A stretch of DNA of 64,000 nt, taken from Bacillota bacterium. Lineage in GTDB: Bacteria > Bacillota > DTU025. Position numbers and translations under genes: made by a program. Positions 25,997-32,045 of this stretch are shown here, piece after piece (the first letter of the stretch is position 1; every line of letters begins with the position of its first letter). A model generated the notes under the pieces. That model was not told the DNA's origin. It did no database searches and saw nothing but the letters and a program-made list of their open reading frames with translations. The stretch covers positions 992,001-1,056,000 of the forward strand of contig JBMNJT010000002.1 of NCBI GenBank assembly GCA_050951805.1. The letters run 5' to 3'.

Positions 25997-26071
<75 letters not shown>

Positions 26072-26230
26072 AATTATTACAGATGCAGTGCTAGGCGGAC
26101 AGTTTGTCTGCCTATTCGTGTATATACAGTAAGTTACATGTGATCGATAAAAGGAACTTTGCTTGGAGTGTAGAAATATAATTAAGAGGGTGCCAATTCT
26201 CCAGATTCTGCATTGGAGGCGAGCCGTGTT

Positions 26231-26413
26231 GTGAAACGGAGATGTGAGATTTGCGGGAAGGTAATACCCAATGAAAGACTGGAAGCTCTCCCAGACACCA
26301 AGCGTTGCATAGAGTGCGCGAGGAGTTGTGGCACCGACGTCTGCGCCAAGAGAAGCGAAGTAGGCATGGATCCTGACACATACAAGGATCTGCTCGGAGC
26401 AGTTCGAAGTTGA
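26231..26413 (+). CDS. TraR/DksA C4-type zinc finger protein
   Basis: CEICGKVIPNERLEALPDTKRCIEC; GTG after GGAGG. Confidence 0.9.
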   Translation: MKRRCEICGKVIPNERLEALPDTKRCIECARSCGTDVCAKRSEVGMDPDTYKDLLGAVRS

Positions 26414-26454
26414 CGAGAAACGGATGTAGTGTTAGCATCATGATGTTGAGAGCG

Positions 26455-26810
<356 letters not shown>

Positions 26811-27161
26811 TTTCATGTGATGCCCGGCTTATGCCGGGCATCGCCATTTCTCAAGAATGGGCTGGATCAGGTGCTATCAGGATCGATGCCCGCGATGCCA
26901 AAATGTATTGGTTGAACGGGCCACAATACGGCTAAACGACACGCGCCTTCCGGCGTTCATTTAAGAAATCAACTATCCCCAGCCACGTGGCTCACCTTTC
27001 TGTATGCGATTGGATCAGGAAAGCTTGCAGAATGTCTTAATCATAAAGCGAGCGCTTGCTCTTCGGATACCCTAGCCCAAAACGAAAGACCGTGGATGCC
27101 TGTTCGGCGGAAGATCCCTCACGTGTCAGGCAGAGCGTCGGGTTCCTGGAAGGAACGACTA

Positions 27162-27189
27162 TTGACAACATACCCCATGATGGTATACG
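27162..27189 (+). promoter_or_regulatory. Promoter containing a CsoR-type palindrome
   Basis: TTGACA followed by ATACC-CCATGAT-GGTAT (27170-27186). Confidence 0.5.
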
Positions 27190-27251
27190 AATAATGTGAG
27201 CCCGTAGAGCTAGACTGCGTTAATGTAGGACATGGGAAGGGGGACAGGGAT

Positions 27252-27410
27252 ATGAAGAAATGGGTGTGCACTGTCTGTGGCTATGTGTATGACCCTGCTG
27301 CCGGAGACCCGGATAACGGTGTAGCCAGAGGCACGGCCTTTGAAGACTTGCCCGATGATTGGGTGTGCCCTGATTGCGGTGTTGGCAAGGAGCTGTTTGA
27401 AGAAGAGTAA
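27252..27410 (+). CDS. Rubredoxin (52 aa, below the ORF-track cutoff)
   Basis: Own translation: [52 protein letters not shown]. Confidence 0.97.
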
Positions 27411-27513
27411 AAGGCAAAACTGGCAAGCGTTGGAGTTTGAGAGGTGCACCAGGCGTTTCAGTTAGTACGGCGGTTGTTGGTCTGCTAGCATCAGATATGG
27501 GAGGATGATGATC

Positions 27514-28053
27514 TTGGCTAATAAGTTGGAGGGTACCAAGACGTACGACAACATTATGGCTGCGTTTGCCGGAGAGTCGCAGGCGCGCAACAAGTATACT
27601 TATTTTGCGAAAGTAGCGAAGAAGGAAGGCTACGAGCAGATCGGGGGAATCTTCGAGGAGACCGCGGAGAATGAGAGGGCTCATGCCAAGAGGCTCATAG
27701 ATTATGTTGGACTTGTTGGTGATACTGCCCAGAATCTGCAGCATGCTGCGGATGGCGAAAACTATGAGTGGACAAGCATGTATCCGGAGTTTGAGCGAGT
27801 AGCCCGCGAAGAGGGATTTGACAGAATTGCCGACACCTTCCGAGAGATTGGAGAGGTGGAGGAAGAGCACGAGAAGAGGTTTAAAGCCCTGCTCGCCAAC
27901 GTAGAGAATGGCACAGTGTTCAGCAAGGGCCAGCCCGTGAAGTGGAAGTGCCGGAACTGCGGTTACGTTCATGAAGGTCCAGAAGCGCCAAAGGCTTGCC
28001 CTGCGTGCGCTCATCCTCAGGCATATTTCGAGTTGTTTGCGGCGAACTATTGA
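27514..28053 (+). CDS. rbr: Rubrerythrin
   Basis: AFAGESQARNKY, ENERAH, GENYE, EEEHE, C-terminal CRNCG...CPAC. Confidence 0.96.
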   Translation: MANKLEGTKTYDNIMAAFAGESQARNKYTYFAKVAKKEGYEQIGGIFEETAENERAHAKRLIDYVGLVGDTAQNLQHAADGENYEWTSMYPEFERVAREEGFDRIADTFREIGEVEEEHEKRFKALLANVENGTVFSKGQPVKWKCRNCGYVHEGPEAPKACPACAHPQAYFELFAANY

Positions 28054-28104
28054 TGTTACTGTCCTCGAGCAAGAAGCGACATGTGAGGCGAGGAGGGCTT
28101 ATGC

Positions 28105-28440
28105 ATGAAGCTATGGAGATGCGGAGTGTGCGGCTATATCCATGATGGCAGTACGCCTCCCGAAAAGTGCCCTAAGTGTGGTGCTCCTGCAGAGAGATTC
28201 TCCGAAGTAGATGATAAGGAGACGGAACTGATCAGAAGGTCCCGTTATACCAATGATCTTCATTGCAGGCTGATCGCACTCATGGAACAGGTTGAGGAGA
28301 TAGCTGAAGCCGGAATAGATGATGATCTTGATCCAGGCTGTGTTGCTGTATTCAAGCGTGCACGAGAAGAGGCGTGGATAATCGGACAGTCGGCTAAAGC
28401 TGAGATCCGGGCTCATATAACCAAGGGCAAGTGGAGCTAG
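28105..28440 (+). CDS. Rubredoxin-like domain protein with helical C-terminal domain
   Basis: WRCGVCGYIH..PEKCPKCGAP followed by GIDDDLDPGC and AEI..H..KGKW. Confidence 0.85.
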   Translation: MKLWRCGVCGYIHDGSTPPEKCPKCGAPAERFSEVDDKETELIRRSRYTNDLHCRLIALMEQVEEIAEAGIDDDLDPGCVAVFKRAREEAWIIGQSAKAEIRAHITKGKWS

Positions 28441-28453
28441 CCTTTGTTTCTGT

Positions 28454-28488
28454 CCTGTGGCCGCTCGAGGGGGCGGCTACAGGCTTTT
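28454..28488 (+). terminator. Intrinsic terminator of the rubredoxin operon
   Basis: CCTGTGGCCGCTC-GAG-GGGGCGGCTACAGG followed by CTTTT. Confidence 0.75.
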
Positions 28489-28660
28489 ACGGGCAAATGG
28501 TGAGCATAGGCCGGGATGCGAGGTTCAGGCGATGGCATGGTTCAATCCATGGGCGTATTGCCGATCCTACGTTACCTCCGGATGAGCTGTAACTCTAGGG
28601 AATCTTATGGGCCACAAGGAAAAGATTCCAAGTCACGTCGTAATATGTTATGAAACTGAT

Positions 28661-28689
28661 GCATATAACCACGGTAATCGGCCATGATA
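28661..28689 (+). promoter_or_regulatory. Putative sporulation (sigmaG-like) promoter for the star-shaped RNA
   Basis: GCATA-N17-CATGATA ending 6 nt before the RNA's first stem. Confidence 0.55.
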
Positions 28690-28695
28690 TCTAAC

Positions 28696-29087
28696 GAGGT
28701 TTACGGCGGTCGAGCGAAGACCCACAATGGATCTGATCATATCGCAAGGTGTCGGGTCCATTGTGCGTCGAGCAAAGGTCGGTTGCGGCTTTAAGCAGGA
28801 CCGCAACTGGCCGGAGCTAAGATCGTTGCAGGTTGGCCAACTTATGGCGGCGGTTGATGAGATCGTCGTTGTAGGGAAACCTATCTGCAGCGGTCGAGCG
28901 AAGATCAGCGTACGAGCGAAAGTGTGGTGTTGCAGTCGAGAGACTGCAGCATGATGCCCAAGTTCGGACGTTGGTCGATCAAAGGTTGTTGCATTCCGTG
29001 AACCGGCTGCTCAGTGCCGAAAGGTGTTGGGTAGTCGCAAATCGGGATGCAGCAGCCGGAGAGCAGATCGTCGTGAGCCTCCTTTTT
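28696..29087 (+). ncRNA. Unrecognised large structured RNA: six-way junction with repeated GAGCRAA linkers
   Basis: 16-bp closing stem 28696-28711/29066-29081; five arms with long helices, many G-U pairs and GNRA loops; six similar 7-8 nt linkers; terminal T run. Confidence 0.85.
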
Positions 29088-29171
29088 GCTTTTCGCCTGT
29101 CTTTCCTGATAATGCTGCTCGAGTCTTCACGAACACACCCAGATTTGACCGAAAGCGGAATTGGTTATAGA

Positions 29172-29201
29172 GCATAAGAGGAGTTGGGCCAAGGTAAAAT
29201 A
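29172..29201 (+). promoter_or_regulatory. Putative sigmaF/sigmaG promoter of spoVT
   Basis: GCATA-N16-GGTAAAATA; spoVT is sigmaG-controlled in Bacillus and Clostridia. Confidence 0.6.
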
Positions 29202-29221
29202 ATAACAAGGGAGGGATGTGC

Positions 29222-29755
29222 GTGAAGGCGACAGGGATAGTAAGAAGAATCGATGACCTTGGCAGAGTAGTCGTTCCCAAAGAGATCCGTAGGACCCTTC
29301 GAATACGCGAGGGAGATCCGCTTGAGATATTCACCGATCGCGAGGGATCGGTGATCCTTAAGAAATATTCCCCCATTGCGGACCTTGGAGAGTTTGCCCA
29401 AGAATACGCGGATTCACTGTACGAAGCAACGAGGCACATAGTGCTCATCGCAGATCAAGATGAGGTTGTTGCGGTAGCAGGAGCCTCAAGGAAGAGTTTC
29501 TATGAACGTCGGATTACTGAGCACGTAGAGGAAGTCATGCGCAACAGGAAGCCATTCCTTTCCAACACTGCCAACGAGAATCCGCCAATCGAAGACTTGG
29601 AGTTGTCTAGCCAGGTAATTGCTCCCATAATTGTCGAAGGGGACATCGCCGGAGCTGTGATCATGTTGTCTCAAGAGGGCAAGTCCATGGGCGAGCTCGA
29701 ATTGAAACTCGCTGAAACAGCGGCTGGATTCTTGGCCAAACAGTTGGGACAATAG
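29222..29755 (+). CDS. spoVT: Stage V sporulation protein T (AbrB + GAF domains)
   Basis: MKATGIVRRIDDLGRVVVPKEIRRTLRIREGDPLEIF; C-terminal ETAAGFLAKQ. Confidence 0.97.
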   Translation: MKATGIVRRIDDLGRVVVPKEIRRTLRIREGDPLEIFTDREGSVILKKYSPIADLGEFAQEYADSLYEATRHIVLIADQDEVVAVAGASRKSFYERRITEHVEEVMRNRKPFLSNTANENPPIEDLELSSQVIAPIIVEGDIAGAVIMLSQEGKSMGELELKLAETAAGFLAKQLGQ

Positions 29756-29782
29756 GAGAAGAGACTGTGCATTAGGGTAATG

Positions 29783-29812
29783 CGGGATCGCCCGAGTTGC
29801 GATCCCGTTTTT
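29783..29812 (+). terminator. spoVT intrinsic terminator
   Basis: CGGGATCGC-CCGAGTT-GCGATCCCG followed by TTTTT. Confidence 0.85.
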
Positions 29813-29814
29813 GT

Positions 29815-30286
29815 GTTCGCCCGGCATATCTATTGAGCCCGAAAGGTCCTTTGTAGCGGGAAGACAATCCGTAGACAAGGGCGCTGCCTAAAGTGGTGGG
29901 GTCTGAAGGAAGTTACAAGGGTGAACATGGAACGTAGCGATTGCGAACCGAAGTTGGCCTTTAAAGTAGGCAACCTTGCGCGATACGGGAAGGCCCGAGG
30001 GCCGGGTAAGTTAGGAAGGACGGATTCGTGTTGAGGCAGACAAACTTGACCGGGGACGCAAGGACGGAAGTCTGTAGAACAAAACTGAGATGGCAGCAGC
30101 CTGGCTGCATGAGTCAAAAGCCGATGCAGTTGCGAAGGGACGGAGACCAACGCGGGGTAGATCGGCTTTGAGCTGGAAACGCCTCGCAAGGCTCTGGAAA
30201 AACTGCAGCCATGCAAGTGAGAAGCAGAGGTCCGTGCGTACGGTTATGTGAGAGGAATGCCTCTACCTGGCGCCACCCCACTCGAT
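29815..30286 (+). mobile_element. ORF-less, degenerate group II (class C-like) intron remnant
   Basis: 5' GTTCGCCCGGCAT right after a terminator; internal CAAGGG..TCTGAAGGAAG; AGCAGAGGTC; 3' GTGCGTACGGTTATGTGAGAGG...ACTCGAT. No RT ORF. Confidence 0.65.
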
Positions 30287-30516
30287 ATTCGCAAAATGGC
30301 CCCAAGCGGGGTACGGACGATCGTTGTTTTGCCGTGATCTTTCGAGGGAACTGAAATGATCCTAGTTTTGTCATCAGTATCTTACGAATCTTCGATATCA
30401 TGATCTGATATTCGTTGGTTATGTCGGCCTTTTATCGGAAGATCGCTGACCGTGAGCCGCAGGATGGCTCCTCTATGCGTCGAATCACAACTGCGACATG
30501 GGAGGAGGCAATCTGT

Positions 30517-30720
30517 ATGGAGGTCACTAATATCAAGGGTGTACTCGTGGCCACTTTGGTGATGGACGAGGGCGATGCTGATGAGATTGGAACGATGTCG
30601 GAGAGCGAAGTGATCCGAAGAGCTAGGAAGGCAGTGGGAACGGTAATTCCTGAACACCTGATACGAGAGATTCTAGTTGGGCATGACGGCGATAGCTTGC
30701 ACGTGGCTTTCAGCATTTGA
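30517..30720 (+). CDS. Hypothetical 67-aa protein
   Basis: Strong GGAGGAGG RBS, ATG at 30517, protein-like composition (MEVTNIKGVLVATL...LHVAFSI). Confidence 0.65.
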   Translation: MEVTNIKGVLVATLVMDEGDADEIGTMSESEVIRRARKAVGTVIPEHLIREILVGHDGDSLHVAFSI

Positions 30721-30796
30721 AGGGCACAGGAGGATTTCGCGTTCGCGCGTCAAATGAATAAGATATATGGCTACGTTCAAACTTAATACTGTGCCG

Positions 30797-30972
30797 ATCC
30801 GCTAGGGGAGCCAACAGGCTGAGAGCGGGATGGTGTGTTGCACGAGCTCAGGCTTGCATTGATGGTAGACGAAGTCTTGCCTTGTTTTGTGACGCACCCC
30901 CGATACCCTGGAACCTGATCGAGCGGGGGAATTCTCTCCCGCCCTGGGTAATGCCAGCGTAGGGAAGCGGTT
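30797..30972 (+). promoter_or_regulatory. TPP riboswitch (atypical, with insertions)
   Basis: CTAGGGGAGCC..GGCTGAGA..ACCCTGGAACCTGATC..GGTAATGCCAGCGTAGGGAAG; terminator ~30988-31020; upstream of thiT. Confidence 0.9.
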
Positions 30973-31061
30973 AAGTCTCTATGTGACTGCGGATCATTTA
31001 TGGTGACCGCGGTTTTTCTGTTTAGTGCCCCACGGCGCGGCGCACAAGGAGGATCAGTGTT

Positions 31062-31640
31062 ATGTCAACAACTCGTTCACGCAAGCCTACTCCTACAATA
31101 GTCCTGACGGAGGTAGGCATGGCTGCCGCGCTTTCGTGGGTTTTGGGGATGATAAGGCTGTTCAAGATGCCCCAAGGGGGGTCTATCTCCCTGGAAATGG
31201 TCCCCATACTCTACATGGCTTTTTCGAGGGGAGTCTATCCAGGCTTGCTCTCGGGCCTAATAGCAGGCGTGCTTGACCTTGTGACAGCTACATCTGAGAT
31301 CGTCCATCCCATGCAGGCTATTCTTGACTATATTCTGGCTTCGACCGCTCTTGGCCTTGCTCCTTGGTTTTCGTTCGGGCGTGGCTGGTGGCGAAATTTG
31401 ACTGGGGCCATAGGAGGAACGCTGGTCGGGTTGATGTGCCATGTCCTCTCCGGGCACATCTTTTTTGGACAGTATGCGCCAGCAGGAACACCTGCTTGGC
31501 TCTATTCGTTGACATACAATGCTACTTACTATTTACCTAAGATGATAATTACAATAGTGGTTGTGGTTATCCTGATGCAAAAAGGCGTCTTGCGTCCAGA
31601 GAATGGCGGAAGGGGCAATGGGAACCGGAGCCAAGGGTGA
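31062..31640 (+). CDS. thiT: Thiamine ECF transporter S-component ThiT
   Basis: MPQGGSISL, HPMQAILDY, SGHIFFGQYAP, YSLTYN; TPP riboswitch upstream. Confidence 0.93.
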   Translation: MSTTRSRKPTPTIVLTEVGMAAALSWVLGMIRLFKMPQGGSISLEMVPILYMAFSRGVYPGLLSGLIAGVLDLVTATSEIVHPMQAILDYILASTALGLAPWFSFGRGWWRNLTGAIGGTLVGLMCHVLSGHIFFGQYAPAGTPAWLYSLTYNATYYLPKMIITIVVVVILMQKGVLRPENGGRGNGNRSQG

Positions 31641-31759
31641 CCATGGAAGGTTTGAGGAGACAGGGAGGGTCGCAGACGGGGCGACCCTGTTTTCCCGTCA
31701 AGAATCGGCCATGAGTTGACGCTGTATGCAGCTGTGTGGTAGATTGATCCTAGTTGAAT

Positions 31760-32045
31760 AGGCGAAATACGATGACGGGGAAGAGTATCGATCGGGACGG
31801 CCAAAGAGAGTGGAGGATGGTGGGATCTCCATGCTGGTCGGGTCGGGAAAATCACCCCCGAGTTGCAGGCTGAAAGGGAACGAGTAAGCTGTGCCGCGTC
31901 CCTGCGTTATCGGGGCTAACGAGAGGGCCGACATTTCTGCGACGGTTCCGTTGCCGCCTGGTGAAACCAGGCCATGTGTCGGCTAATTTAGGGTGGTACC
32001 GCGAGTTAACCCCTCGTCCCTTGGACGGGGGGCTTTATCTTTTCT
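31760..32045 (+). promoter_or_regulatory. Ile T-box riboswitch
   Basis: Stem I with AGAGA/GGTGGGA motifs, specifier ATC at 31851-31853, T-box AGGGTGGTACCGCG at 31990-32003, terminator CCCCTCGTCC/GGACGGGGGG plus T run. Confidence 0.93.

Follow-up and report, generated by a model that had tools for sequence, protein, structure and literature searches.

The window analyzed here, a stretch of 64,000 nucleotides (nt) from a contig of a Bacillota bacterium (JBMNJT010000002.1), carries genes for a rubrerythrin, a small rubredoxin-like protein and SpoVT and, between the last two of these genes, a segment of ~386 nt (28696-29081, + strand) in which the initial annotation had noticed a short junction motif repeated six times. 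Our comparative analysis assigns these six motifs to the hub of a non-coding, structured RNA that stands alone and takes up this entire segment. Its architecture comprises a closing stem of 16 base pairs (bp), P1, and five hairpin arms that meet at a six-helix junction, the motif being located in the strands that connect consecutive helices, J(P1/1) through J(5/P1) (Table 1). Overall, we regard it as practically certain that the structured RNA is real and that its repeated hub is conserved. All positions are those of the window; genomes, contigs, loci and families are referred to, where they have to be told apart, by our own handles (G, C, L and f, respectively).

Table 1. Coordinates of the structured RNA, of the signals that flank it and of neighboring features in the window.
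Feature	Position	Strand	Remarks
P1, 5' strand	28696-28711	+	Closing stem, 16 bp; 11/16 pairs compensatory
J(P1/1)	28712-28718	+	GAGCGAA; G, A, G and final A each in 32/34 rows (L011 and L012 are gapped here, their P1 5' strand being misplaced in alignment A1)
Arm 1	28719-28769	+	51 nt, apex variable; 9/15 basal pairs compensatory
J(1/2)	28770-28776	+	GAGCAAA; G34 A31 G33 C34 A30 A30
Arm 2	28777-28812	+	36 nt, apex variable; 12/15 pairs compensatory
J(2/3)	28813-28820	+	GGAGCUAA; position and conservation confirmed
Arm 3	28821-28895	+	15 bp, internal loop, 15 bp, apical loop; 20/30 pairs compensatory
Arm 3, internal loop	28836-28840 and 28876-28880		GCCAA facing GAAAC
Arm 3, apical loop	28856-28860		GAUGA
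J(3/4)	28896-28902	+	GAGCGAA; position and conservation confirmed
Arm 4	28903-28976	+	15/29 pairs compensatory; included in covariance model R1
Arm 4, internal loop	28918-28921 and 28958-28961		GAAA facing CCAA
Arm 4, tetraloop	28938-28941		GAGA
J(4/5)	28977-28983	+	GAUCAAA; U28979 and C28980 paired with A29062 and G29061
Arm 5	28984-29057	+	18/29 pairs compensatory
Arm 5, internal loop	29000-29003 and 29038-29041		GAAC facing CAAA
Arm 5, tetraloop	29019-29022		GAAA
J(5/P1)	29058-29065	+	GGAGAGCA; conserved; paired in part with J(4/5)
P1, 3' strand	29066-29081	+	Pairs with 28696-28711
-35-like element	28661-28665	+	GCATA; most of the 34 loci have G[C/A/T]ATA upstream of P1 with constant spacing
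-10-like element	28683-28689	+	CATGATA; 17 nt past the -35 element and 6 nt ahead of P1; [C/T]A[T/A/C]nnTA conserved in most loci
U-rich tail	29082-29093	+	CUUUUUGCUUUU; directly 3' of P1; probable 3' end or termination signal
Rubrerythrin gene	27505-28053	+	
Rubredoxin-like gene	28105-28440	+	Protein of 111 amino acids with a rubredoxin-like domain only
RNase P RNA, class A	26455-26814	+	334.6 bits, E 6e-110
tRNA	26000-26068		Clipped by the edge of the searched stretch
ThiT/YuaJ-type thiamine transporter gene	31062-31640	+	No upstream thiamine pyrophosphate riboswitch at Rfam gathering thresholds

The + strand of positions 28690-29100 folds with a predicted energy of -219.3 kcal/mol against a shuffle mean of -146.1 (z -13.0), and none of 100 dinucleotide shuffles was as stable. 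The opposite strand of the same interval (its reverse complement) gives a z of -1.4, an asymmetry of folding that is typical of a G.U-rich RNA. For the analysis of covariation we used 34 distinct full-length RNAs of 308-459 nt (alignment A1), after dropping L008, L009, L016, L018, L019, L020, L028 and L029 as truncated or redundant, along with 11 exact duplicates. RNAalifold returned 138 pairs on this alignment, 87 of them with compensatory changes. With the structure held fixed, 98.7% of the 4608 cells are in standard pairs (vs 32-46% when the partners are slid by 1-3 columns), and in none of 500 shuffles was the count of compensatory pairs, or the covariation score (0.478 vs 0.219), as high. 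No pseudoknot was detected in this analysis. To the limit of what comparison of sequences can provide, the secondary structure may be considered established.

All six linker strings listed in the initial annotation were found exactly in place, and so were the identical 15-mer GCGGTCGAGCGAAGA at 28706-28720 and 28890-28904 (family D5) and the GAGCGAAA reported within arm 4, which we located at 28914-28921. The degenerate pattern CGRKCNAAGRY has seven matches in the window vs 2.5 expected, four of the seven falling inside this 400-nt stretch. Since the linkers occupy exact positions and the pattern is both in excess and clustered, the motif is real and not a product of chance. It is also conserved across the family, in the 34 distinct homologs as well as in more distant members, every junction strand being a variant of G-R-G-C-N-A-A. 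The consensus of the 34 homologs reads GAG-N3-4-A for J(P1/1), GAGCAA(A/CU) for J(1/2), (G/U)GAGC-N-N-A for J(2/3), GAGC-N-N-A for J(3/4), G-R-U-C-A-A-A for J(4/5) and GGAG-A-N-N-A for J(5/P1). The leading GAG (GRU in J(4/5)) and the final A of most linkers are retained in 26-34 of these homologs, J(1/2) being exceptional in that its final base is U in 21 of the 34. In L081, a representative of the distant lineages, the six linkers are GAGCCAA, GGCCAAA, GGCGGGCA, GAGCUAA, GAGCAAA and GUAGCGUA.

As an observation that would count against the motif, the initial annotation had named linkers no better conserved than the helices in homologs. The mean information over the 34 homologs is highest in the four hub-proximal bp of the helices (1.63 bits), followed by the linkers (1.48 bits) and the remaining helix columns (1.30 bits), and the repeated motif survives this comparison. 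On the other hand, two details of the original description had to be modified. The pseudo-six-fold layout holds for the number of helices, which is six, but not for the number of arms, the sixth helix being the closing stem P1. Likewise, not every linker is single-stranded, as J(4/5) and J(5/P1) pair with each other in a covarying 2-bp helix.

The first of these two pairs as listed in Table 1 (A1 columns 429/517) is UA in 29 sequences, CG in 2, GC in 2 and UG in 1, the second (columns 430/516) is CG in 32 and UG in 2, and both form in 100% of the sequences. Among distant members the same two positions appear as GC/GC, GU/AC (L077, L093), AC/GU (L078) and wobble variants, which brings the dinucleotide types overall to UC/GA, GC/GC, CC/GG, GU/AC and AC/GU. 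From this pairing and covariation it follows that the 2-bp helix extends arm 5 over a purine-rich internal loop. Around arms 1 and 3, the bases present would also allow analogous GC/GC pairs, and with these the hub would acquire a pseudo-three-fold core. A further candidate is a pairing of J(3/4) with J(4/5) around arm 4, which is suggested by the minimum-energy folds of distant members. It breaks down in L078 and in the near lineage and was rejected; unlike this one, the pairing of J(4/5) with J(5/P1) holds in all members compared.

Arms 3, 4 and 5 are built alike, each of them consisting of ~15 bp, a 4x4 or 5x5 internal loop, another ~15 bp and an apical loop. Family-wide, arm 3 has (G)CCAA facing GAAA(C) and an apical GAUGA, arm 4 has the internal loop of arm 3 in flipped orientation (GAAA facing CCAA) and an apical GAGA, and arm 5 has GUAA facing CGYA and an apical GAAA. 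These loop bases are kept in 29-34 of the 34 homologs, with the exception of the third base of the 3' loop of arm 5, which is variable, and hardly any change is seen in the arm 4 apex, GCAGUCGARAGAYUGC. The lengths of arms 1 and 2 differ between homologs: L005 has a shortened arm 1, L011 and L012 (with four arms) lack it, and apical insertions are present in L017, L023, L025, L031 and L042 (those of L017, L025 and L031 in arm 2). A comparison of arm number across homologs, as suggested initially, thus shows that it is not constant at five, the constant part being a core of arms 3-5 and P1. Distant members fold to the same shape of P1 and five arms, their arm counts being approximate as the minimum-energy folds contain spurious linker helices of 2-4 bp. 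In distant lineages (e.g. L076, L081, L092) arms 1 and 2 closely resemble each other, each measuring ~35 nt, and share a conserved GGGUC-loop-GGCUC at the apex, a feature that is absent from the lineage of the window.

The six helices resemble one another as well. At its hub end each starts with a G-C pair, followed by R-Y, a near-invariant U.G (sometimes C-G) and Y-R, and all six, P1 included, have on the strand leaving the hub a common 12-nt module, G-R-U-Y-R-N-Y-R-Y-R-G-G. Over 186 strands (six helices in each of 31 sequences) the frequencies at module positions 1-6 are G 100%, R 100%, U 97%, Y 99%, R 92% and N, and those at positions 7-12 are Y 97%, R 92%, Y 79%, R 70%, R 90% and G 78%. 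At positions 5-12 the identity between non-homologous helices within one molecule is 0.43, as compared to 0.28 (standard deviation 0.007) after shuffling of positions; because the helices resemble each other more closely than these shuffled controls, we conclude that one module is shared by all six of them family-wide. In addition, the arm 1-arm 2 region gives a weak match to a covariance model of arms 3 and 4 (in four class genomes, with ~30 bits and E between 4e-6 and 4e-5), and similar adjacent weak matches to this model occur in the phylum sample. Both the 12-nt module and the weak match strengthen the original suggestion that the RNA grew by duplication of a single hairpin module. P1 itself looks like a sixth copy of this module with an open apex, such that the transcript appears to start and end inside one module. 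A related idea, concerted evolution of the arms, was considered and rejected, as the identity within a molecule (0.43) equals that between lineages (0.38-0.44).

A BLAST search detected the RNA in 14 of 41 related genomes (G000 counted). A pattern based on the arm 4 apex retrieved 33 loci from a species-representative genome collection, all of them in metagenome-assembled bins, mostly labelled Bacillota, Firmicutes or Clostridia, with several genomes containing two copies; the same pattern had no match in the viral contigs scanned. Distribution counts rest on a covariance model, R1, that covers J(2/3) through J(4/5), i.e. arms 3 and 4 (171 positions, 59 bp). By this measure the RNA is present in 12 out of 21 genomes of the class (10/11 in f1, 1/1 in f2, 0/1 in f3 and 0/7 in f4) and, in an even sample of the phylum, in 50 out of 151 genomes (46/140 when counted over high-quality genomes and 45/129 when counted over genera). 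Five carrier genomes consist of a single contig (G039, G080, G110, G115 and G142). Multiple copies are found in G030 (L013 and L015, both on C41), G038 (L014 and L017), G125, G053 and G036, G030 having its two copies on opposite strands of one contig, at a distance of 16 kb. Three loci, L025, L026 and L041 (JBLNBS010000161.1, JBLNDC010000255.1 and JBLNDC010000379.1), come from bins labelled Patescibacteria and Bacteroidota; these contigs, of which that of L041 has sigK upstream of the RNA, are probably Bacillota DNA assigned to the wrong bins.

Within the sample, the RNA is confined to genomes with a sporulation gene. SpoVAD (PF07451) scored above cut-off in 128 of the same 151 phylum genomes, all 50 carriers of the RNA are among these 128, and none of the 23 genomes without SpoVAD carries the RNA. 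The same holds within the class, where f4 has neither of the two (0/7 for the RNA and 0/7 for SpoVAD), and f1 and f2 have both. This co-occurrence is to be read as an association rather than as a statistical test, related genomes not being independent of one another.

The RNA is a gene of its own, whose flanking genes differ by lineage. In the near lineage, rubrerythrin, the rubredoxin-like gene, the RNA and spoVT follow one another in this order in 10 out of 10 loci. In another lineage, one copy of the RNA is located directly downstream of sigK in nine loci (TIGR02846, ~1e-104, above cut-off). Other copies and distant members have unrelated neighbors, occasionally including spoVAC/spoVAD, gerA, a GerM-like gene or DUF444, and no consistently adjacent protein gene was identified among 34 + 50 flanking open reading frames (ORFs).

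Upstream of the RNA most loci share a promoter-like layout, G[C/A/T]ATA, 17-18 nt, [C/T]A[T/A/C]nnTA and 6 nt ahead of P1, which is also present in several distant members. This layout fits what we take to be the consensus of the forespore sigma factors (for sigmaG, GHATR, 17-18 nt, CATnnTA), and is suggestive of a promoter of the forespore (sigmaG/sigmaF-like) type. A scan of the region for a sigma-70-like promoter on the + strand and for a local terminator hairpin found neither. In this genome, counting only occurrences with a ribosome-binding site and an ORF behind them, the motif precedes 24 genes, among them spoVT, a spoVT paralog and one gene for a small acid-soluble spore protein (SASP), i.e. 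three of the five SpoVT/SASP genes. In C. difficile, according to PMC7438776, SpoVT, SASPs and spoVAC are under the control of SigF/SigG. The second SpoVT paralog (G000:C8:548147-548677; SpoVT_C 4e-35) is 64% identical to the SpoVT of the window and has GTATA-N17-TACAATA upstream. We also noted an ORF of 97 amino acids, with no Pfam match, in four copies (G000:C2:462811-463101, C3:59085-59375, C8:65955-66245 and C8:316169-316459) that have an identical upstream string, GCATAGCCATTGCCGGCGTGAGTATCCTA; these copies probably represent a repeated or mobile element.

On the 3' side, a U-tract follows P1 directly in most loci, the exceptions being L022 and L036, in which it is missing and a separate downstream hairpin is present. 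Twenty public sequencing runs contain the stretch: 14 DNA runs (from digesters, sludge and bioreactors, possibly including the source sample) and 6 metatranscriptomes from five studies. In X19, a contig covering 28694-29000 has a depth of 89.6, as compared to 4.5 for the contig upstream (28462-28683) and 4.8 for that of spoVT. A contig of X18 (28631-29077) spans all arms, and one of X20 also ends at 29077, the two runs belonging to two studies. A contig start two bases before P1 and two stops four bases short of its end give a weak hint at the predicted ends of the RNA; gaps in contig cover, at spoVT and between contigs, are not evidence of absence.

Taking context, distribution and promoter motif together, we consider the RNA probably linked to sporulation, its most likely role being that of a spore-specific structural or scaffold RNA. 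In the mechanism that we propose, the RNA would be transcribed from its own forespore-type (sigmaG/sigmaF-like) promoter, would end at the U-tract after P1 and would have a scaffolding or sequestering role during sporulation or in the spore. The repeated motif would be a structural device, namely a compact, pseudo-symmetric core that sets the directions of the arms, and not a set of six free protein sites. Such a core would probably be assembled from purine-rich non-canonical (sheared purine) pairs together with A-minor contacts made by the terminal adenines; the near-invariant 4x4 internal loops and GNRA tetraloops of arms 3-5 would be the surfaces through which the RNA works, by tertiary, RNA-RNA or protein contacts. 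As a composite, this reading (the structural hub of a forespore-made scaffold or sequestering RNA) appears to us somewhat more probable than its negation, and its narrower component, a structural hub rather than six protein-binding sites, is close to an even call.

Several observations weigh against this interpretation. The structural hub and the scaffold function are both inferences, and the GC/GC pairing around arms 1 and 3 is backed by invariant bases and G.U variants only. The reading of the promoter depends on the sigmaG/sigmaF consensus, which PMC7438776 presents in figures only; a reversed control motif precedes 49 genes (including one partial SASP gene) vs the 24 of the actual motif, such that there is no overall enrichment, and just one of the three SASP genes has the motif. 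With 370 nt enclosed by it, P1 would make an unusual intrinsic terminator. The evidence of expression consists of assembled contigs, which reveal neither the strand, level or true ends of a transcript nor its timing, and in X15 a contig runs continuously across the region from the rubredoxin gene to spoVT. Finally, 78 of the 128 SpoVAD-bearing phylum genomes have no R1 match, and G013 (f3, 96% complete) contains SpoVAD with no match to the RNA; it follows that sporulation does not generally depend on the RNA, or else that some family members escape the partial model.

The junction strands might instead be repeated sites for a single oligomeric or multi-copy RNA-binding protein, in which case the RNA would be a sponge or would be built around a protein ring. 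We consider this rather unlikely, even though GAG is kept in five of the six strands and the terminal A in five of the six (in 32-34 of the 34 sequences), and the first 12 nt are the same in all six helices, as repeated recognition would yield. Two of the six strands, J(4/5) and J(5/P1), are engaged in pairing with each other, and the flanking ORFs described above offer no consistently adjacent protein gene. Moreover, the specific ring or multi-copy proteins put forward by analogy in the initial annotation (Hfq, TRAP and CsrA) are not supported as candidates. Hfq was found in none of the 21 class genomes, 12 of which carry the RNA, with control genomes giving the expected matches; in the phylum sample it is present in 123 of 151 genomes and missing from G000 (97% complete), G004 and G098. 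TRAP (PF02081) was likewise found in none of the 21 class genomes, the B. subtilis control being positive. CsrA is patchy (9/21), with no match in four genomes that bear the RNA, G005 (96% complete), G006, G008 and G009. Since all three are missing from genomes that bear the RNA, they are not its partners in this lineage.

Another possibility is that the RNA homo-oligomerizes via its GNRA tetraloops and invariant internal loops, the hub setting the geometry of a lattice or cage. Arms 3-5 are built alike with near-invariant loop bases, and natural RNA-only homo-oligomers do exist, as described in PMC12286853. However, the invariant loops yield no covariation signal and could equally make contacts within the molecule or with a protein, and we hold this option, which is based on analogy, to be improbable. 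A bolder version of it is a six-armed "star" in the developing spore, with a hub of six module copies rigidly fixing how the arms point and the loops of arms 3-5 linking molecules into an RNA-only oligomer or lattice or into an RNA-protein shell. We put slightly less trust in this version; if true, the assembly would store, protect or organize something in the dormant spore core, and would represent a new natural RNA architecture, with a six-fold hairpin duplication and transcript ends in the middle of an arm.

The remaining explanations fare considerably worse. According to the first of them, which takes up an earlier suggestion that GGUC may pair with the next GAUC, the linkers toggle between the six-helix hub and small GGUC/GAUC hairpins in a functional alternative fold. 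Indeed, 88.7% of the cells in the 24 proposed pairs allow standard pairs, but shuffles reach 87.9%, and 4 pairs change on both sides vs 3.1 expected, which leaves this fold with no support from covariation. Four of the proposed pairs (15/26, 141/156, 509/524 and 260/271) are unpaired in 22/32, 20/33, 16/34 and 13/34 sequences, respectively, and column 15 covaries with its P1 partner, column 522 (CG 22, UA 10), rather than with column 26. The alternative pairing is a by-product of the shared helix ends, and a functional switch of this kind is very unlikely.

A similarly low probability is assigned by us to a precursor role, in which processing at the junction strands would free the arms as small RNAs. 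The presence of several short contigs within the RNA in X20 could be cited in its favor, albeit as a weak argument, contig breaks not being RNA ends. On the other hand, the contig of X18 covers all arms, and arm sequence outside the loops varies freely, unlike seed regions. The covariation of P1, which joins the 5' and 3' ends (see its compensatory pairs in Table 1), points to the intact molecule as the object of selection. We give hardly any credence to a cis-acting spoVT leader (riboswitch or attenuator) or a repeat element without RNA function, since the position of the RNA 135 nt upstream of spoVT in 10/10 near-lineage loci is offset by its location after sigK or among unrelated neighbors elsewhere, by the presence of at least two copies in some genomes and by a promoter-like motif that spoVT has of its own between the RNA and the start codon, and since frequent G.U pairs and strand-asymmetric folding indicate a constraint at the RNA level and the viral contigs scanned gave no match. 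Compared with all of these, a structural hub in a forespore-made scaffold or sequestering RNA remains the interpretation that we favor.

With its duplicated hub of unusual regularity, the RNA represents a previously uncatalogued class among the large structured RNAs of bacteria, and lies outside Rfam 15. A search of window positions 26000-32000 at gathering thresholds detected only RNase P RNA and a tRNA, and a search of 28300-29400 at E<=10 returned only two chance-level eukaryotic matches (14.6 and 14.7 bits). Among 20 distant homolog loci the same database gave only tRNAs, in L097. No prior description was found in the literature on structured and sporulation RNAs, with the reservation that motif-catalogue supplements outside this search could list such a motif; in passages from PMC5737381 and PMC8632094, the terms sporulation, spore, spoVT and sigK led to nothing relevant to this RNA. 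Few large and widely conserved bacterial RNA classes are still undescribed, and the present one, of ~390 nt and with strong covariation, occurs, always alongside spoVAD, in one third of the genomes sampled from a phylum whose members are mostly spore formers. Its proximity to spoVT, sigK, spoVA or gerA in several lineages, together with the promoter motif, ties it to sporulation, a process whose RNA biology is very little known beyond Bacillus and C. difficile. As an unusually regular natural multi-helix junction, it is also relevant to RNA structure, to evolution by duplication and to RNA nanodesign.

With respect to known systems, the repetition of a short motif within one RNA is shared with CsrB/RsmZ, the partners of CsrA, with the trp leader bound by TRAP and with Hfq-binding RNAs. 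GAG is also a TRAP triplet, TRAP sites being (G/U)AG triplets spaced 2-3 nt apart, whereas the GAG motifs of this RNA are separated by hairpins of 36-75 nt. Unlike in CsrB/RsmZ, the apical loops are GAUGA, GAGA and GAAA rather than GGA, which is present only in two junction strands. Six helical domains around one central loop are also a feature of group II introns; this analogy is purely architectural, since the RNA has no match to the Rfam group II intron models and, at 386 nt, no large domain I, intron-encoded protein or exon context. To our knowledge, the junction strands of group II introns are not near-copies of one another, unlike the six described here.

The two nearest kinds are the small forespore RNAs of Bacillus and the large "ornate" RNAs of bacteria; by the tests made here, the RNA is assigned to neither. 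In its putative forespore-type promoter motif it resembles the former, Bvs196 (S357) and CsfG. According to PMC9147052, both are independently transcribed in the forespore under sigmaF/sigmaG control, and Bvs196, with a length of 294 nt and a conserved fold, is described there as a base-pairing regulator. Its fold is far weaker (-82 kcal/mol, from the same paper, vs -219 kcal/mol here), the two RNAs having been compared by description. OLE, ROOL, GOLLD and raiA, the ornate RNAs, are, like this RNA, long, highly structured and stand-alone, with multistem junctions, many invariant loop bases and a function that is not known. PMC12286853 reports that OLE, ROOL and GOLLD form RNA-only homo-oligomers, and PMC5737381 lists sporulation genes among the upstream neighbors of raiA. 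The Rfam models of these four classes match neither the RNA of the window nor the 20 distant loci, and it differs from all of them in that the six junction strands of its one hub are nearly identical and in that it is restricted to spoVAD-bearing genomes of one phylum.

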